From positions 2,243,261 through 2,307,260 of the forward strand of contig JACKID010000001.1 of NCBI GenBank assembly GCA_020638675.1: 64,000 nt of DNA, in the 5' to 3' direction. This document shows, piece by piece, positions 3,366-59,964 of this stretch (position 1 is the stretch's first letter; the number at the start of each line of letters is the position of its first letter). Both the position numbers and the translations under genes were made by a program. The DNA is from Planctomycetota bacterium (GTDB lineage: Bacteria > Planctomycetota > UBA8742 > UBA2392). A model generated the notes under the pieces. It had not been told where the DNA came from. It searched no databases and saw only the letters and a program-made list of their open reading frames with translations.

Positions 3366-3444
3366 GCGATCAGCCCCGCCCAAGAGGGCGGGGATAGGTC
3401 AGACAGAATTGCCGCATCAATCCCCGGCCTTTCGGCCGGGGCGG
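3366..3444. repeat. REP-like double-hairpin intergenic element, copy A
   Basis: gcgatcagCCCCGCCCaagaGGGCGGGG, then 28 nt, then CCCCGGCCtttcGGCCGGGGcgg. It is nearly identical in both hairpins to a second copy at 24229-24306. Both copies sit directly 3' of a stop codon. Confidence 0.6.
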
Positions 3445-24228: not shown

Positions 24229-24306
24229 GCGATCCGCCCCGCCCGATAGGGCGGGGTGACGCTCCCAAGATCAAACGCTGAATCCGCGGCCTTTCGGCCG
24301 GGGCGG
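24229..24306. repeat. REP-like double-hairpin intergenic element, copy B
   Basis: gcgatccgCCCCGCCCgataGGGCGGGG, then 27 nt, then CCGCGGCCtttcGGCCGGGGcgg. It is paralogous to 3366-3444 and lies between convergent genes. Confidence 0.6.
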
Positions 24307-25041: not shown

Positions 25042-25072
25042 AAAACAAAAACCGGCGAGCTCTCGCTCGCCG
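25042..25072 (-). terminator. Rho-independent terminator of rpoD
   Basis: CCGGCGAGC-tct-GCTCGCCGG hairpin. On the minus strand it is followed by TTTTTGTTTTGG (A-run 25042-25051 on the plus strand). Confidence 0.6.
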
Positions 25073-25101
25073 GTTCTTGCGGGCGGGACGCCCGCATCAC
25101 T

Positions 25102-51686: not shown

Positions 51687-51779
51687 GCGCTCACACGTTC
51701 ATAGGGAAGGGCCCGGGGTTGTCTCAGGTGGATGATTTGGGCACACTTGGCCCACCCCATCCGGAACAGGAACACAGGC

Positions 51780-52868
51780 ATGCTGAGTTATCGACTTTCT
51801 GTCGCGATGATGGCTGTCGGGCTGCTGCTGGCCGGCACTCTCTATGCGGACCGCATTTCGTACATCCAGGGCTCGGGTGCTAAAGCCGAGATGAAGATGG
51901 ACGAAGACATCACGATCACCGGCTGGAGCGCCTCCAAGGTCGACTACAAGACCGCCGACGGCAAGGCCGCGAGCGTGAAGTACAACGACATCCTGTCGCT
52001 CGACCGGCACTACGGCAGCATGAGCGCGCAGCTTTCCGAGGCAATGGACCTCATCGCAGCCGACCCGGGCGACGCGATCGCCGCGCTGGCCGAGATCGCG
52101 GCCAACGGCAACGCGCTTGACCGCGAGGAAGCGGCCTTTCTGCGCGCGAACATTCTCGACAGCGAAAGCTACGCCGACAAGGCACTCCTGGGCCAGGCCG
52201 TGAAGGCCTACCAGGACTACGTGAAGAGCTACAAGGCGGGCTACTTCGCACGCGAGGTATACCGGGGGCTCTCCAACGGCCAGTTGCGCTCGAATGATGT
52301 CAGCGGCGCGCGGGCGACTTTGAAGGGCATGGTTCGGGCCGACAGCGCGCTCGAGCGCGAAGGCAACCAGCTGCTGGGTGAGCTGGAGGCCGGCGAGGCC
52401 AAGTGGTCCGACGCGATCGCTGCGTTCAAGGCCGCGCAATCGTCAGCCAGCAGTGAGAAGGACAAGAACCACGAATACCTCGCCAAGGCGTGGGAGGGCT
52501 GGTGCACGCTCAAGAACGGCAACGCCGCCGCGGCCAAGACGCTGCTGGAGTCGGTGACGGACGACGACGGCTTCGACGACCCGAACAGCACGGTTGACGA
52601 GGCTGCTCTCGGTGTTGCGTACCCCGCCCTCGGTGATTGCTATTTCGAAGGCGACAACTTCCAGAAGGCCTACGACGCGTACGTCAAAGGTGCCTATTTC
52701 GCCTGGTGGTCGGCGGGAACGCGCGAAGGCTACTGCCTCGGGCAGGCCTACCTGTGCGCCAAGAAGAACGAGAGCACCGGCGACAAATGGAAGAAGCGCA
52801 TGACCAAGCTGCGCACCGCACTGGCGCTCGGCTTCCCGCGCGTGCTGGCGGAAGTGGACAAGCAGTAG
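51780..52868 (+). CDS. Secreted TPR-like repeat protein
   Basis: The ATG at 51780 gives a signal peptide (MLSYRLSVAMMAVGLLLAGTLYA). The rest is A/L-rich helical repeats. Confidence 0.55.
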   Translation: MLSYRLSVAMMAVGLLLAGTLYADRISYIQGSGAKAEMKMDEDITITGWSASKVDYKTADGKAASVKYNDILSLDRHYGSMSAQLSEAMDLIAADPGDAIAALAEIAANGNALDREEAAFLRANILDSESYADKALLGQAVKAYQDYVKSYKAGYFAREVYRGLSNGQLRSNDVSGARATLKGMVRADSALEREGNQLLGELEAGEAKWSDAIAAFKAAQSSASSEKDKNHEYLAKAWEGWCTLKNGNAAAAKTLLESVTDDDGFDDPNSTVDEAALGVAYPALGDCYFEGDNFQKAYDAYVKGAYFAWWSAGTREGYCLGQAYLCAKKNESTGDKWKKRMTKLRTALALGFPRVLAEVDKQ

Positions 52869-52880
52869 GGCTACGCCAAA

Positions 52881-52920
52881 TGAAAACGAGGGACGCCCGC
52901 TGGCGTCCCTCGTTGCGTTT
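52881..52920. terminator. Bidirectional terminator hairpin between convergent genes
   Basis: CGAGGGACGC-ccgctg-GCGTCCCTCG, flanked by an A-run on one side and TTGCGTTTTG on the other. Confidence 0.55.
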
Positions 52921-52928
52921 TGCATCCC

Positions 52929-53903
52929 CTACTTCATCTCGACCTTGGTGGCCTCCAGCACGGTTTCACCGGACTTGGTCTTCTTCACCAGCTTGATGAG
53001 CGCGCCTTCGGAAATCCACTCGCTGGTTTCCGTTCCAGCCTTTTCGTCCTTGGACTCGAAAACGTCGCAGACGAACTCGCCGGCCGCGACCGTCAGCTTG
53101 ACGCCGGTCTTTGTTGGCTTGCCGTATTCCTTGTCCCAGGTTTCCTTGTCGGTCGTCTTGTCCACCGCCTTGGCGCCTTCGCTCGGGACGCCCGCTTCGT
53201 CACAGGCCACGGCCGACCAGGTCGCTGACTTGGCCTCAACGGCGCCGACCTTGCGCAACTGGTAGCTCTGGTCCCGCCCCGGGACGGTGATCTTGAGAAT
53301 GACGTAGTTGTCGGTCGCGGCATAGAAACGCGGCATCTCGGACTTCACGGTCTCGACCGGATCCGGGTCCTTGGATTCCGCACTGCCCTTCTTGTCACTG
53401 TGGAAGCTCACTAGCCAGACAACATCCTTGCCGTTCGTAACCTGCTTGACGACGCCGCCGCACGGGACGTCTTTGCAGTAGTACGCTTCCGTGGTCGCCT
53501 GGCCGATGGTCCACTTGGCTTTGTCGCACTTGAGTTCGATTTCGCCCAGGGTGAGCGTCTCCTCAGTCCACTCGACCTCTTTTTCCTTACCGTACGGCAT
53601 GCGGATCTGGATCTTGATGGAGGCCCAGTCGCGCGTCTTTTCCTGCTGCGCGGTCTGCTTGCCGTTGGCGAACATCGTGTGCGTGTACGTGATCTTGCCA
53701 GCGTTCACCCGGGTTACTTCGTCCTTGAAGGTGATCCCGTTGCCGAGTGAGTACTCGGCCCAGTCCCCCTTCTCGGCATCTTTCCAGGTGTTCCAGCCGT
53801 CCGCCCAGTCGCCTTCCTTGGCGTCGGCGTGAATCGCGGACTGCTGCCATGCAAGCAGTGCCAGCACGGCGCAAAGCATTCCTGCGCGAAAAAGTTGGTG
53901 CAT
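52929..53903 (-). CDS. Secreted paralog-family protein P5 (unknown C-terminal domain)
   Basis: GAGGAGGAGGA SD and a signal peptide. The C-terminus AGEFVCDVFESKD...SEWISEGALIKLVKKTKSGETVLEATKVEMK is homologous to the P1-P4 C-termini. Confidence 0.6.
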   Translation of the reverse strand: MHQLFRAGMLCAVLALLAWQQSAIHADAKEGDWADGWNTWKDAEKGDWAEYSLGNGITFKDEVTRVNAGKITYTHTMFANGKQTAQQEKTRDWASIKIQIRMPYGKEKEVEWTEETLTLGEIELKCDKAKWTIGQATTEAYYCKDVPCGGVVKQVTNGKDVVWLVSFHSDKKGSAESKDPDPVETVKSEMPRFYAATDNYVILKITVPGRDQSYQLRKVGAVEAKSATWSAVACDEAGVPSEGAKAVDKTTDKETWDKEYGKPTKTGVKLTVAAGEFVCDVFESKDEKAGTETSEWISEGALIKLVKKTKSGETVLEATKVEMK

Positions 53904-53969: not shown

Positions 53970-55310
53970 CTACTCCATCTTCAGCTCGGTCAGCTCGATT
54001 GTGTGCGGGTCCGCGCCTGCGACTGTGGTCTTCGCGAGGATGACAATCCCGTTCCAGCTCCAGCTTTCGGTGTGTCCGTAGGCTTCGCTAACGGAATACA
54101 GCGCGGGATATGTGCCCGCTGGCGTCTCGACCATCTGCTCGATTTCGCCCGCGTAGGCTGCCGGCTCTTCTTCGGCCTCGCCCGGAAAGGTGTGCTTCAA
54201 CGTGTCCTTGCCCGTCTCGTTTCCCGCGGCATCGGTGACGGTCATCGTGTACGTCGCCTCGGTCTCGGTCACCTCGGTGACTTCGACGCGAACGGTCCTT
54301 TCCGGCTTCTTTTCGCCGTTTGCGGTCGTGTAGCTGCTGGTGACGTAGTAGTTGCCCAGCGTGCGGTAGAACTGGTGCTCGTCGTGGCCGAGGTCAAACA
54401 CCTCCAGGTCCATGCTGTAGTTCTTCATCTTTGTCGCTACGGTCAGCCCGGGCCAGTAGACGCTGGTCCAGCTTTCGAAACCCGCGTCATTCATGTGGTA
54501 GCACTGGAAGTCGCCGGCCGGGCAGTTCTTGGTGACCATCTCCATGTTGGATGAGGTTCCACCACCCATGGCCATGGCGGGCGCACTGAAGCTCATTTCC
54601 GTGTCCTGGCTGAACATGGACTTGCCGGTGTTGTCGAGGACGGAGAGCGTGAATGTCGCGCCGTCCGCGCGTACTTCCTTGACCTTGTACTCCATCGACG
54701 TCGAGGTTTTCCCACCGCCGGCGCCTGAGGTGGTGCGGATGGTCCAGCGCCTGCCTTCCTTGCGATAGAGCTGGTACGGGTCCACATCCGCGGCGTCGAA
54801 CCAGGTGAGCTTGGAAATCTGAGTCGAGCTCGAAGCAATCTTCAACTGCTTCACGACCAGCGGGTGATAGTCAACGCTCACCCACGTGGTGGTCTGCAAC
54901 GTCTCCGTCTTCGTCACGTGCTTGCGGCACTTGAACTTGCGGAAGCCCATATCGAGGGTCTCTTCGGTCAGGCCGGCCGCGGCGTAGCCCAGCTGCTCCG
55001 GTGATGGTGACTTCAGGTCGACTGTGTAGCTCGACGACGTGTAGCTGTTGCCGCCATCGGACACCGTCTCGTCAGTGATTTTCGCCTTGCCGTCCTTGTA
55101 GCTGGTCACCTGCACCGTCCGCTTGCTGACTTCGGGGGACTCGCCGCGTGTCCAGTCCACCACGCGGTAAGACCAGTTGCGGCCCTTCTTCGCGTACACG
55201 TCCATCAGCTTGATCGTCGGGTCGAGTTTGACTTCCGGTTCGGCGTCCTGTGCAAGCACGGCCGGGAACGCGAGCAGCAGCAGGAAGGCGGACAGGATCA
55301 GGCGTTTCAT
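53970..55310 (-). CDS. Secreted paralog-family protein P4 (internally duplicated)
   Basis: GGGGAGAT SD before the ATG at 55310 and a signal peptide (MKRLILSAFLLLLAFPAVLA). The conserved DPYQLYRKEGRRWT motif is present, with an N-terminal second partial copy (KGRNWSYRVVDW). C-terminus ...SWSWNGIVILAKTT...IELTELKME. Confidence 0.6.
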   Translation of the reverse strand: MKRLILSAFLLLLAFPAVLAQDAEPEVKLDPTIKLMDVYAKKGRNWSYRVVDWTRGESPEVSKRTVQVTSYKDGKAKITDETVSDGGNSYTSSSYTVDLKSPSPEQLGYAAAGLTEETLDMGFRKFKCRKHVTKTETLQTTTWVSVDYHPLVVKQLKIASSSTQISKLTWFDAADVDPYQLYRKEGRRWTIRTTSGAGGGKTSTSMEYKVKEVRADGATFTLSVLDNTGKSMFSQDTEMSFSAPAMAMGGGTSSNMEMVTKNCPAGDFQCYHMNDAGFESWTSVYWPGLTVATKMKNYSMDLEVFDLGHDEHQFYRTLGNYYVTSSYTTANGEKKPERTVRVEVTEVTETEATYTMTVTDAAGNETGKDTLKHTFPGEAEEEPAAYAGEIEQMVETPAGTYPALYSVSEAYGHTESWSWNGIVILAKTTVAGADPHTIELTELKME

Positions 55311-55382
55311 GGCATCTCCCCTGGCGACGGCTTGACCAGTGTAGTCGCCCTGTCCGCAAGTCGCCAAATCATTGCGCAAATG

Positions 55383-55407
55383 AAAGCGGGCGCCCGAAGG
55401 CGCCCGC
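55383..55407 (-). terminator. Cloned terminator hairpin, copy 1 (after P3)
   Basis: AAAGCGGGCGCCCGAAGGCGCCCGC, with a perfect 9-bp stem and a CGAA loop. It is identical to copies at 56462-56486 and 57533-57557. Confidence 0.6.
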
Positions 55408-55422
55408 CTGAGTGTCGTTGCC

Positions 55423-56376
55423 CTAGTCTACGTATTCAATCAGTTCAGTCGTCATCGACCCGCTTTCCATCTTGACCAGCAGGCCGGGGTATTTTTTCGA
55501 CATCCAGGATTTCGTGCCGCTCACTTCCGTCACAGTGCACTCAAACTCGCCTGCCTCAACCTTGATCGTTTCCTCGGTCGTCTTGACCTCAGGTCTGTCG
55601 CCCCAATCGTCTTCCGCTTCGCGGAACTCAATCTCTGTCTCGTTTGCCGGCAAGCCTGCCATCGGCTTCCTGTCCTTGTCCAGAACCGTGTATGACACCG
55701 TGGCACTGTTGGCACCGACTTTGATGACTTCCGCCTTGAAGTACGAGATTATGTCGTCCATGCCCTCAAGCTTCGTAGTGGTCTTCGCAGTCCATTTGCG
55801 TCCCTTCTTTTTGTAGAGCACATACGGGTCAGGCTTGTCCTTGTCTACGGCATAGCCCTCGCCGAAGTTCACGTCCGGGCTCGCTTCCTTCAGCTTCGCC
55901 AACGTGTCGAACCAGCGGACGTCACCTTCTCCGCGCGCCCACGGGAACACAAGAATCCCGAAGCGCTTGTTGATCTTGTCTTCGGCGACGATGGCCGCCT
56001 GTTCTACGCGCTGCAAGCGCTTGGCCGCATAGACGGCGTCGTGGACTTTGTAGTTGTCGGTTTCCATCACGTCGCTTGCGACGTCGCAGCCCTTCTTGTC
56101 CCAGGATGCATGCAGCGTCTCGGGTGGACTGCCGTTCCGTGCGTAGCTGATACGCGCGCTGTCGCGCATCCCGAAAAGGACCTTCTCCGTCTTTTCGGCC
56201 GCGAGTTCTTTCTCGGCCTTTGCGAGCCTGTCTTCGAGTACCTTGACTCGTTCCTCCAGCTCCTTGAGCCGCTCTTCGACAGTCTTGGAGGTCGTTTTCT
56301 GAGCAACGGTCACTACCGGGGCGATCGCCAGCAACACGCCAACCAACGCCGCAATCACTGCCGTCCTGATCATCAT
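55423..56376 (-). CDS. Secreted paralog-family protein P3
   Basis: AGGAGA SD, signal peptide MMIRTAVIAALVGVLLAIAPVVTVA, and a coiled-coil stretch. Motifs DPYVLYKKKGRKWT and ...AGEFECTVTEVSGTKSWMSKKYPGLLVKMESGSMTTELIEYVD. Confidence 0.6.
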   Translation of the reverse strand: MMIRTAVIAALVGVLLAIAPVVTVAQKTTSKTVEERLKELEERVKVLEDRLAKAEKELAAEKTEKVLFGMRDSARISYARNGSPPETLHASWDKKGCDVASDVMETDNYKVHDAVYAAKRLQRVEQAAIVAEDKINKRFGILVFPWARGEGDVRWFDTLAKLKEASPDVNFGEGYAVDKDKPDPYVLYKKKGRKWTAKTTTKLEGMDDIISYFKAEVIKVGANSATVSYTVLDKDRKPMAGLPANETEIEFREAEDDWGDRPEVKTTEETIKVEAGEFECTVTEVSGTKSWMSKKYPGLLVKMESGSMTTELIEYVD

Positions 56377-56461
56377 CGTCTCTCCTGTGTGTTCGGAATG
56401 CTCCAAACAGCTTCGTGGGCATTAGAGTTGTGAGCTTGCTGAACAGCAAGTCTCAAAAAAG

Positions 56462-56486
56462 AAAGCGGGCGCCCGAAGGCGCCCGC
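56462..56486 (-). terminator. Cloned terminator hairpin, copy 2 (after P2)
   Basis: The identical 25-mer AAAGCGGGCGCCCGAAGGCGCCCGC, preceded on the plus strand by an A-run (a T-run on the minus strand). Confidence 0.6.
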
Positions 56487-56502
56487 TTGTCTTCACACTG
56501 CT

Positions 56503-57426
56503 CTAGTCTTCGTCGCCTTCGTTGAACTCAACCAGTTCCATTGCCTCGCTCTTGACGATGATGCCCGGGTACTTCTTCATCATCCAGGTCTTGCCGTCGT
56601 CGTAGCTGATCGCCTCAAACGTGCCCGCCTTGCACTCAATCTCCTTTTCGATCGACTTCGGCGCGGGCGGCATTTCGCCCGACCCACGCTCGGCCGTCTC
56701 GAACTTGAGCGCCGTCGTGTTGGCCGGGCCCATCGCCTGGCCGTTCATGTACATCTGCGTTTCCATGTCGCAGCCGTCATCGGTTACGTTCTTGATCGTG
56801 GTCTTCATCTTGAAGCCGCCGGTGATTTCGTACGTCCAGTTGCGGCCTTCCTTGCGGTAGGCTGCCCATGGATCGATCTCGCCGTCGCCCTCTTTGGCGT
56901 CTTTGCCCTCGCCTTCAGCTTCCTTGCCTTCCCCCGCGTCCGTGGTCTTGTCTTCGATCTTCACCTCCTTGTGCGCTTTCTTGAGCTCGTCAAGCGAGGC
57001 GTACCAGTCGACCTTTGAGTCACCGCTCGCCCACTCAAACGTCATGATCGCGAAGCCATCTTTGCCGGCCACGTCTTCCACTATCAGCGCTGCGCTTCCC
57101 CGCTTGTCAGTTACGGCGTAGACTTGGTCGTGCATCTTGGCGTAGTCACCCTTCAAGTCTTCCGCAGTCGCACCACACCCTTGTTTGCCCGCCTCGCCGG
57201 TCAGCGTTTTCGGTGCTTCACCGGATTTTGCATAGGCAACGCGAGCCAAGTCCCTCATCGATCCGATGATCTCCTCGCACTCCTTGCGGCGATCCTCCTG
57301 GCTGGTCTGCTTGGGCTTCACTTCTGCGGGCTCCGCCTCGTCCTTGGCTTCCTGTGCAAGTGGAGCCTGGGCAACAAACACGCACGCAACGAGTGCGGCC
57401 AAGAGCATCGTGAATGTGTTTTTCAT
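56503..57426 (-). CDS. Secreted paralog-family protein P2
   Basis: GGAAGGAAA SD and a signal peptide. Motifs DPWAAYRKEGRNWT and ...KAGTFEAISYDDGKTWMMKKYPGIIVKSEAMELVEFNEGDED. Confidence 0.6.
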   Translation of the reverse strand: MKNTFTMLLAALVACVFVAQAPLAQEAKDEAEPAEVKPKQTSQEDRRKECEEIIGSMRDLARVAYAKSGEAPKTLTGEAGKQGCGATAEDLKGDYAKMHDQVYAVTDKRGSAALIVEDVAGKDGFAIMTFEWASGDSKVDWYASLDELKKAHKEVKIEDKTTDAGEGKEAEGEGKDAKEGDGEIDPWAAYRKEGRNWTYEITGGFKMKTTIKNVTDDGCDMETQMYMNGQAMGPANTTALKFETAERGSGEMPPAPKSIEKEIECKAGTFEAISYDDGKTWMMKKYPGIIVKSEAMELVEFNEGDED

Positions 57427-57532
57427 AGTCAGTTTCCTTCCCTAGCGCGGCAGACGCCGCTCGTCAGTAAGGGCCAAATTAGACACCTGAGGGCATAGTG
57501 TGTCCATCTTCACAATTGATCCACCAAACAAA

Positions 57533-57557
57533 AAAGCGGGCGCCCGAAGGCGCCCGC
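57533..57557 (-). terminator. Cloned terminator hairpin, copy 3 (after P1)
   Basis: The identical 25-mer again, AAAGCGGGCGCCCGAAGGCGCCCGC, with a T-run on the minus strand (TTTTTTGTTTGG). Confidence 0.6.
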
Positions 57558-57581
57558 TCGGTACTGCTACCGGGAATTCAA

Positions 57582-58124
57582 CTATTCCTTGAACTCAACC
57601 AGCTCGGACTTACCGGCGGCCGACTCCATCTTGACCATCAGGCCCGGGTACTTCTTGGACATCCAGGTCTTGGTGCCGGAAACTTCGGTCATGGTGCACT
57701 CGAACTCACCCGCACCAACCTTCACGGTCTCGTCCTTGGTCTCAACCTTGGGTGCGGCATCCGCCGGAGCCGTGGTATCAGCCTTCGTGAACGGGATCTT
57801 CGTCGGCTCGGGCTCAGGCATGCCGGCCATGGGCTTCATGTCGGCGTCGAGAGTCCACATCTTGACCATCGCGTGATCGTCGGCCACTTCAACAACTTCG
57901 GTCTTGCTGTGGCTGATGTTTCCACTGAAGTCGTTCTTGACGACCCAGATGCGGCCCTTGGACTTGTAAAGAGCGTACGGGTCTGATGCGGTCTCGCCAC
58001 CGCAACCACCGCCACAAGCGGCCGTGTTGCCGCCGTTGCCGCCTGCAGCGTTGTTGCCGCCGCCACAAGCAACTGCCACGACTGCCACCAGGCAAAGAAG
58101 GCTGAAAAGGATGCTCTTACGCAT
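57582..58124 (-). CDS. Paralog-family lipoprotein P1 (shortest member)
   Basis: GGGAGAA SD and a signal peptide with a lipobox-like VAVAC, followed by a Gly/Asn/Ala-rich linker. Motifs DPYALYKSKGRIWV and ...AGEFECTMTEVSGTKTWMSKKYPGLMVKMESAAGKSELVEFKE. Confidence 0.6.
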   Translation of the reverse strand: MRKSILFSLLCLVAVVAVACGGGNNAAGGNGGNTAACGGGCGGETASDPYALYKSKGRIWVVKNDFSGNISHSKTEVVEVADDHAMVKMWTLDADMKPMAGMPEPEPTKIPFTKADTTAPADAAPKVETKDETVKVGAGEFECTMTEVSGTKTWMSKKYPGLMVKMESAAGKSELVEFKE

Positions 58125-58321
58125 GAAATTCTCCCTGATAATTTAGGTTAGCTGCCAATCCTGCTCAGATACGTGGCTTGCGAACAAGCACAAGATATGC
58201 CATATCTAATCAGAGTGTCATGGAGCCCTTGAATTAGGGCTCAGGGGGCGATTCCGCCTTCTGGAATGCCGGGTAGTCCATGTCACGTTATGTGTGCAAG
58301 TGTAAGAAAAGTTGACACGCC

Positions 58322-59827: not shown

Positions 59828-59964
59828 GTGGCCGCGAGCGGAAAATTACCTCAACGAACGTGCTCCCCATTGACACGGTAGGCGCAAACCCTATCGTTTT
59901 CTGCCCTTGAGAGATCGCTGCCTCGTCGCGCACTGTGGCGAGGCGTCGTTTATTGGAGTCATGA

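Follow-up and report, generated by a model that had tools for sequence, protein, structure and literature searches.

Identical stem-loops behind three diverged tandem genes of a Planctomycetota bacterium are most probably old intrinsic terminators preserved by selection

Repetitive extragenic palindromic (REP) sequences and bacterial interspersed mosaic elements (BIMEs) are short, GC-rich, perfect or imperfect intergenic palindromes that can stabilize the upstream mRNA, terminate transcription, or serve as recombination sites, and C(UUCG)G belongs to the extra-stable UNCG tetraloops. Intrinsic terminators are defined as a GC-rich hairpin followed immediately by a U-rich tract of 7–9 nt (PMC3993855), and the position of Rho-independent terminators peaks at +10 to +20 after the stop codon (PMC3152330). 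A repeated form, the Tuberculosis Rho-independent terminator (TRIT) of Mycobacterium, was described by Gardner et al. 2011; it has 147 dispersed copies in M. tuberculosis, most of them bidirectional and overlapping the coding-sequence end (at about −8) (PMC3152330). Here we analyzed a 64-kb stretch of a Planctomycetota genome (contig JACKID010000001.1; hereafter the window), in which three byte-identical hairpins stand behind three of five tandem paralogous genes. All five genes of this array lie on the minus strand, so the hairpins are read on that strand. With a probability of roughly 0.85, we consider them ordinary intrinsic terminators that were inherited with each gene of an old tandem family and have been kept by selection.

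The 25-mer AAAGCGGGCGCCCGAAGGCGCCCGC was found exactly at 55383-55407, 56462-56486, and 57533-57557 on the plus strand (spacing 1079 and 1071 nt), as reported in a first-pass annotation of this DNA, with no fourth match at ≤ 3 mismatches in the window and none in 100 dinucleotide-preserving shuffles. Read on the minus strand, all three copies are GCGGGCGCC-UUCG-GGCGCCCGC followed by a U-run, with the 3′ tails UUUUUUGUUUGG, UUUCUUUUUUGA, and UUUCAUUUGCGC. The stem is a perfect 9-bp, all-G/C helix closed by a C(UUCG)G tetraloop (10–11 bp counting the A-U extension), which bears out the earlier description of a 9-bp GC stem, a tetraloop, and a minus-strand T-run after paralog stop codons. The three elements, with their scores in a covariance model (CM) search, are the following:

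57524..57557, minus strand: terminator copy 3, stem-loop at 57557-57536 plus one A-U pair, U-tract UUUUUUGUUUGG, after the 180-aa gene; 53.5 bits (CM)
56453..56488, minus strand: terminator copy 2, 22-nt stem-loop that two A-U pairs lengthen to 11 bp, U-tract UUUCUUUUUUGA, after the 307-aa gene; 57.2 bits
55375..55407, minus strand: terminator copy 1, 22-nt stem-loop, U-tract UUUCAUUUG, between the 317-aa and 446-aa genes; 53.5 bits

The distance from stop codon to stem was 24 nt for copy 3, 16 nt for copy 2, and 15 nt for copy 1; the downstream location had been recognized correctly, but the range of 15 to 40 nt first given for it narrows to 15–24 nt. The hairpin alone has a predicted folding energy of −21.2 kcal/mol and dominates the predicted folds of its surroundings (−26 to −32 kcal/mol, z-scores from −3.5 to −4.6). 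The U-tract is one-sided, on the coding strand only, and because the 5′ side of the hairpins carries no A-run, the terminators are probably unidirectional. The features of an intrinsic terminator that can be tested on sequence were all found, i.e., a GC-rich stem-loop, a U-rich tract, a position past the stop codon on the strand of the gene, and compensatory changes (see below). A search of 52.5-58.6 kb against Rfam 15 gave no family at its gathering score (best matches 23–29 bits vs. thresholds of 55–59, E 0.2–0.7).

Such elements are rare in this DNA. The window holds 16 perfect hairpins with a stem of ≥ 8 bp, five of them followed by a T-run, and four of these five belong to the array, so that one gene family has 4/5 of the strong terminators in 64 kb. 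The fifth T-run hairpin, outside the array, is located at 25050-25075 (minus strand). Near-identical GC-only hairpins without T-runs were also noted at 3374-3393, 3422-3441, and 24237-24256 (CCCCGCCC-aaga-GGGCGGGG, CCCCGGCC-tttc-GGCCGGGG, and CCCCGCCC-gata-GGGCGGGG). In a simple terminator scan, copies 2 and 3 and the hairpin at 52885-52914, at the end of the array, were the top terminator-like sites; copy 1 was absent from the output, skipped because its T-run is weaker.

The hairpins were compared with syntenic arrays in nine other distinct Planctomycetota genomes or assemblies (loci L002, L061, L121/122, L123-125, L126, L128, L132, L133, and L134) and with a solo family gene in two more (L129-L131). 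L002 (HKST-UBA87) and L061 (HKST-UBA88) are Planctomycetota metagenome-assembled genomes (MAGs), both orthologous to the array locus of the window; the L121/L122 arrays come from metagenome contigs recovered with a five-sequence domain alignment, a search that gave only one further lineage; the remaining arrays (L123-125, L126, L128, L132, L133, L134) and the solo gene were found by looking up homologs. The resulting alignment comprised 20 hairpin copies from 12 loci, including the three of the window. In every array, the same hairpin with a U-tract stood 13–27 nt past the stop codon of each gene that precedes the gene for the three-domain protein, and the solo family gene was likewise followed by one.

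Paired cells made up 99.5% of this alignment and fell to 30–54% in slid controls. Double-sided changes occurred at three stem pairs (nine cells vs. 1.2 in shuffles; 0/500 shuffles reached the score), the outer pair changing from G-C to A-U or C-G and two inner pairs from G-C to A-U; two G·U wobbles were also present. The stem variants were:

L123_a and L126_a/b: ACGGGCGCC/GGCGCCCGU
L123_b and the solo genes: CCGGGCGC(C/U)/GGCGCCCGG
L128_a: GCGGACGCC/GGCGUCCGC
L132 and L134: GCAGGCGCC/GGCGCCUGC
L133: a single G·U wobble

The loop was UUCG in 12/20 copies, the others being UGCG, UUAU, GCAG, and AAGA, with UUCC in the shortened L128_b copy. All variants retained a predicted stability of −17 to −22 kcal/mol, and the U-tract positions T31, T32, and T38 were invariant over the 20 copies. 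To judge from the aligned copies, this covariation pattern is the signature of a selected RNA hairpin, and selection on the hairpin, one of the explanations offered in the first-pass annotation, accounts best for a structure that is conserved with covariation in 20 copies at 12 loci. The three copies of the window equal the consensus of the 20; hence, the simplest reading is that all three keep the ancestral state.

The hairpin followed family genes almost exclusively. Two scans, one with a relaxed regular expression for the core (266 kb) and one with a covariance model R1 built from the 20 copies (225 kb, i.e., the window itself plus related DNA of about 160 kb), matched only after family genes, with one exception. 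This exception is a stem-loop with U-run in L133 (10987-11030, minus strand; CCGGGUGCC-UGCG-GGCACCCGG, 42 bits) that ends a convergent, non-family neighbor gene of 361 aa; it may have arisen as an inverted copy of the array terminator, or else show that stems of this type are favored in the clade.

The genes in front of the hairpins are ancient. As previously noted, the coding sequences have diverged substantially: the domains of about 135 aa encoded upstream of the three hairpins are pairwise 33%, 35%, and 52% identical and fall into at least two old domain types, while the same domains share 77% (L123_a), 78% (L002_b), and 62% (L121_b) identity with their orthologs. As paralogs are 33–52% and orthologs 62–78% identical, the units predate the species splits and are not recent. 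The best match between units was 76% nucleotide identity along a coding stretch of 129 nt, and the intergenic flanks outside the hairpin and T-run could not be aligned between units, identity ending at those edges. This abrupt end of identity points to purifying selection on the element itself.

We infer from these comparisons a mechanism in which each single-domain gene would be its own transcription unit, ended where the hairpin and U-tract release RNA polymerase, and in which transcription of the following gene most likely begins anew at a promoter of its own, within the spacer of 73–107 nt that separates each hairpin from the next start codon. Genes 4 and 5 would form a single transcript that ends at the 52885-52914 hairpin. 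The terminator would have been copied together with its gene during the formation of the array, well before the sampled Planctomycetota lineages diverged, and purifying selection on hairpin stability has probably acted ever since. With all pairs G/C and a UNCG loop on top, a perfect stem is expected to be destabilized by any single change, and the three copies of the window would be identical because all are still ancestral. Once present, identical copies could act as direct repeats between which whole units are lost or gained.

Traces of such exchange are visible. The number of hairpin-bearing genes per array varies from one to three across genomes, and the 317-aa unit is missing from L002, the closest relative, whose alignment to the window jumps from hairpin copy 2 to copy 1; this indicates that the unit was lost or gained between terminator direct repeats. 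In addition, the first gene of L002 (4340-5966, aligned with 55383-58124 of the window) joins the signal peptide of the 180-aa protein to a domain of the “A-type” that resembles the one in the 307-aa protein. These alignments suggest that recombination, both between paralogous domains and between terminators, reshapes the array. The earlier proposal that the hairpin seeds duplication is weakly favored by the one mappable gain or loss of a unit, that of the 317-aa unit in L002, which breaks inside hairpins.

Several observations weigh against this reading or limit it. The U-tract of copy 1 is weak (UUUCAUUUG), and the specificity of the hairpin to the array within the clade applies to the 64-kb window and the related loci. 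Across lineages with proteins of 40–70% identity, the inner stem CGGGCGCC/GGCGCCCG hardly varies, and the end-of-array terminator has been replaced in several lineages while the internal hairpins persist. The conservation of the inner stem exceeds what stability demands, which leaves room for an additional sequence-specific role or for homogenization by conversion, and the stronger conservation of internal than of terminal hairpins is the one aspect that simple selection for stability does not fully explain.

Concerted evolution as the main cause, in which short-tract gene conversion or template switching rather than independent selection homogenizes the copies, is the first alternative to be weighed, and we regard it as unlikely. 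Conversion does seem to occur in this family: two hairpins of L121 have 40 identical nt in common (UGCG loop and flanks) behind domains that are 34% identical, and both copies of L126 carry a derived A-U outer pair within 34 identical nt, when its sister L123 has one A-U and one C-G copy. Moreover, copies without a partner in their genome (L132, L134, and the solo L129/L131) show a stem change and, except in L132, a changed loop, as expected if homogenization maintained the others, but the single-hairpin copy of L133 is a counter-example with one G·U change only. In the window, identity ends exactly at the hairpin, whereas conversion tracts should drag flanks along, as they did in L121 and L126; the window sequence is the cross-genome consensus, so conversion is unnecessary there, and conversion alone cannot account for conservation between genomes or for compensatory changes. 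Of the conversion suspected in the first-pass annotation, the part that holds is thus a minor one, visible as short tracts in L121 and L126 and probably contributing in some genomes, but apparently not required for the three copies of the window.

Two further alternatives give the hairpin a role beyond termination. According to the first, which we judge improbable, it would be a family-specific cis element co-inherited with a secreted domain restricted to Planctomycetota, its inner stem CGGGCGCC/GGCGCCCG being the target of a dedicated factor that binds RNA or DNA and coordinates paralog expression, with identical copies homogenized by conversion and used as boundaries at which recombination adds or removes cassettes of gene and terminator. 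According to the second, still somewhat less credible, GCGGGCGCC-N4-GGCGCCCGC is a sequence-specific binding site, either the operator of a dimeric regulator of the downstream genes or a protein-bound RNA stem, and termination is secondary or regulated. The inner stem, nearly invariant in 20 copies while the end-of-array terminator turns over, would fit such a site, as would the location of the hairpin 73–107 nt before the next start codon, and there is a precedent in the mycobacterial TRIT, a sequence-conserved terminator motif with a proposed binding factor (PMC3152330). However, the hairpin is absent upstream of array genes 1 and 5, it follows a solo gene whose downstream neighbor is an unrelated convergent gene (YceI), the G·U wobbles break the symmetry of the DNA but keep the pairing of the RNA, the U-tract is conserved on one side only, and no Rfam family matches.

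A recent duplication, in which gene and terminator were copied together and the coding regions then diverged fast, as the first-pass annotation proposed, could appeal to the tandem layout, the similar unit length (1079 and 1071 nt), and the varying number of one to three hairpin-bearing genes, but it is very hard to reconcile with orthologs that are more similar (62–78%) than paralogs (33–52%), with units that reach ≤ 76% identity over 129 nt between unalignable flanks, and with the presence of the same hairpin in arrays whose other proteins are 37–54% identical to those of the window.

The same annotation had also raised a mobile or REP-like module, i.e., a dispersed palindrome or miniature mobile element that inserts between genes and seeds rearrangements, and had named occurrence at hundreds of unrelated loci as the mark of a generic motif. 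A scan for the 22-mer core over one genome per species gave at least 119 stretches, and the exact 22-mer was located in at least 117 unrelated loci, almost all of them with a single copy, but these belong to other phyla (among the matches listed, Alpha-, Beta-, and Gammaproteobacteria, Actinomycetota, Acidobacteriota, Gemmatimonadota, Verrucomicrobiota, and others), and the hairpin is still specific to the array within its own clade. Among the matches listed, 72/125 instances had ≥ 5 T in the next 9 nt in the UUCG orientation and only two had an upstream A-run alone in that orientation; with T-runs in so many phyla, the 22-mer appears to be a convergent, optimal terminator hairpin, not a lineage marker. 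Besides the query, no other perfect 9-bp G/C stem with a UUCG loop was present in 859 kb around the foreign matches.

One foreign occurrence differs in kind. In the Ca. Porisulfidus MAG OZ220480.1 (192-264 kb; L039, L046, L060, L094, and L104), the 22-mer is part of terminal inverted repeats of ~75–100 nt that bound an element of ~630 bp, present in at least five copies (73–88% identical) across ~70 kb and possibly of the miniature inverted-repeat transposable element (MITE) type.

This repeated element of an unrelated bacterium, the exact palindromic repeat in intergenic position, and the L002/window indel breakpoints inside hairpins could speak for a REP-like origin, which we nevertheless consider extremely unlikely. 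The 64-kb window contains just three copies, each behind a family gene; in about 160 kb of related DNA, the only copy elsewhere is the single adjacent terminator of L133; HKST-UBA87 and HKST-UBA88 each gave only the array locus among the matches listed; orientation, distance past the stop codon, and the one-sided U-tract are constant at orthologous positions across genomes; and the 22-mer was absent from the viral contigs searched. What characterizes REPs or MITEs was not found in the available sequence, where copies stand only at the 3′ ends of family genes and in one adjacent terminator, nor was any repeat structure beyond the hairpin found around copies of fixed orientation and stop distance.

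The genes of the array, in the order of transcription, are listed below:

57582..58124, minus strand: paralog 1 (180 aa), predicted lipoprotein whose signal peptide ends ...VAVAC-GGG (lipobox); one family domain
56503..57426, minus strand: paralog 2 (307 aa), signal peptide, N-terminal region, and one “A-type” family domain
55423..56376, minus strand: paralog 3 (317 aa, ATG at 56376), signal peptide or membrane anchor, coiled-coil-like segment, and one “B-type” domain
53970..55310, minus strand: paralog 4 (446 aa), three tandem family domains; no hairpin after it
52929..53903, minus strand: paralog 5 (324 aa), two family domains; final gene of the array

Promoter-like sites and the hairpin at the end of the array were assigned as follows:

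58192..58221, minus strand: promoter-like site ATGACA-18-TATCTT before array gene 1, conserved in L002 and L061; a consensus match only
57478..57506, minus strand: candidate promoter TGGACA-17-TCTAAT, putatively placed between copy 3 and the 307-aa gene
55338..55367, minus strand: candidate promoter TTGGCG-18-TACACT, putatively placed between copy 1 and the 446-aa gene
52885..52914, minus strand: end-of-array terminator AACGAGGGACGCC-AGCG-GGCGUCCCUCGUU plus UUUCAUUUGG (stem also written AACGAGGGACGCC-AGCG-GGCGTCCCTCGTT), after paralog 5

The motif TGTGGACACA recurs at the position equivalent to 57478..57506 in L002, L128, and L121, and a TAGACT-like box precedes the gene for the three-domain protein in 10/10 orthologous loci. 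Paralogs 4 and 5, separated by a spacer of 66 nt with the ribosome-binding site GGAGGAGGAGGA and a fold z-score of +0.63, are probably co-transcribed. The spacer after the 446-aa gene starts with GCGGGCGC and was considered as a decayed hairpin copy, but it folds no better than shuffles and was rejected.

The related but distinct hairpin that the first-pass annotation placed near 52881-52920 is real (52885-52914, after the last paralog) and is also located 16 nt past the stop codon of a convergent plus-strand gene (51732-52868). It scored only 23 bits with the covariance model and can be related to the array hairpin only distantly, if at all. Orthologs with one compensatory change were present in L061 and L121; L126, L128, and L132-134 have unrelated hairpins at this place.

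The array is always divergent beside genes for a Zn_ribbon_8 protein, an unknown protein of 411 aa, a TPR/alpha-CTD protein, and a Ser/Thr kinase. Within 59870-59964 of the plus strand, the window has a strong sigma-70-like promoter (TTGACA-16-TATCGT), then a conserved 5′-leader hairpin (TGCCTCGTCGCGCACTGTGGCGAGGCG, 59919-59945), and finally UCGUUUAUUGGAG, directly before the ATG of a 428-aa protein with TPR and RNA-polymerase-alpha-CTD domains. Promoter and leader hairpin are conserved in L002, L061, and L128, and the stems co-vary in L123, L132, and L134, which makes the leader a candidate attenuator or regulatory leader. The 59919-59945 hairpin had been considered as a control for the conservation of non-family terminators and was discarded as unusable, being a conserved 5′-leader hairpin behind a strong promoter.

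The five paralogs have a C-terminal domain of ~135 aa in common (DPYxLYKKxGRxW ... AGEFEC ... WMSKKYPGLxVK), present in 1, 1, 1, 3, and 2 copies per protein in gene order, and all five carry signal peptides, that of paralog 1 with a lipobox. Searching the five proteins and that of a neighboring gene against Pfam gave no credible family, with weak, sub-threshold DUF3108-like matches; a match to RE_LlaMI (25.2 bits, cut-off 25) was disregarded as marginal and restricted to a 62-residue stretch of a secreted protein. A profile search over 5.8 billion proteins returned 46 relatives, and all names given by the sources were Planctomycetes, most relatives being unnamed. The 180-aa protein itself is among these 46, being identical to P0007 “H6839_09925 [Planctomycetes bacterium],” encoded on a 3.09-Mb contig. 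Its AlphaFold model has a predicted local distance difference test score (pLDDT) > 90 across the domain, which is all-beta, and weakly resembles the open beta-barrels of MucB/RseB/LolA (template modeling score of about 0.45). The paralogs are a very narrow, uncharacterized family of secreted proteins and lipoproteins.

For the reading of other genomes, this locus implies that finding short GC-rich hairpins letter for letter alike behind diverged paralogs is no proof of recent duplication or mobility. A stem of perfect G/C pairs under a UNCG loop is an evolutionary dead end, and selection can keep it frozen over very long periods. The locus also provides clean, covariation-supported examples of canonical intrinsic terminators in Planctomycetota, a phylum on whose termination signals a brief literature search returned nothing specific, and is of little importance beyond annotation. 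The residual novelty is the unusually frozen inner stem and the use of the repeats as cassette boundaries of a dynamic array.

Compared with known systems, the hairpins of the window resemble canonical intrinsic terminators in their GC hairpin and U-tract and in their position at +15 to +24 after the stop codon, close to the +10 to +20 peak (PMC3152330); nothing essential seems to differ from the L-shaped type with a stable tetraloop, and what appears unusual is the identity of the paralog copies and the inner stem maintained clade-wide. The nearest precedent is TRIT, in which sequence as well as structure are conserved in many copies of the same genome and an extra binding factor has been proposed (PMC3152330). 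Unlike TRIT, the window hairpin has three copies, all within one gene family; it is unidirectional, carries a U-tract, and is located entirely past the stop codon. REPs number in the tens to hundreds, are scattered over unrelated loci, and face either way, whereas the array hairpin occupies the 3′ ends of one family in a fixed orientation at 12 loci. With the concerted evolution of tandem paralogs it shares the within-genome derived states of L121 and L126, the variation between one and three units, and the indel of the 317-aa unit bounded by repeats. It departs from the usual course of that process in that a non-coding patch of 26–40 nt is homogenized next to coding sequences that are 33–52% identical.

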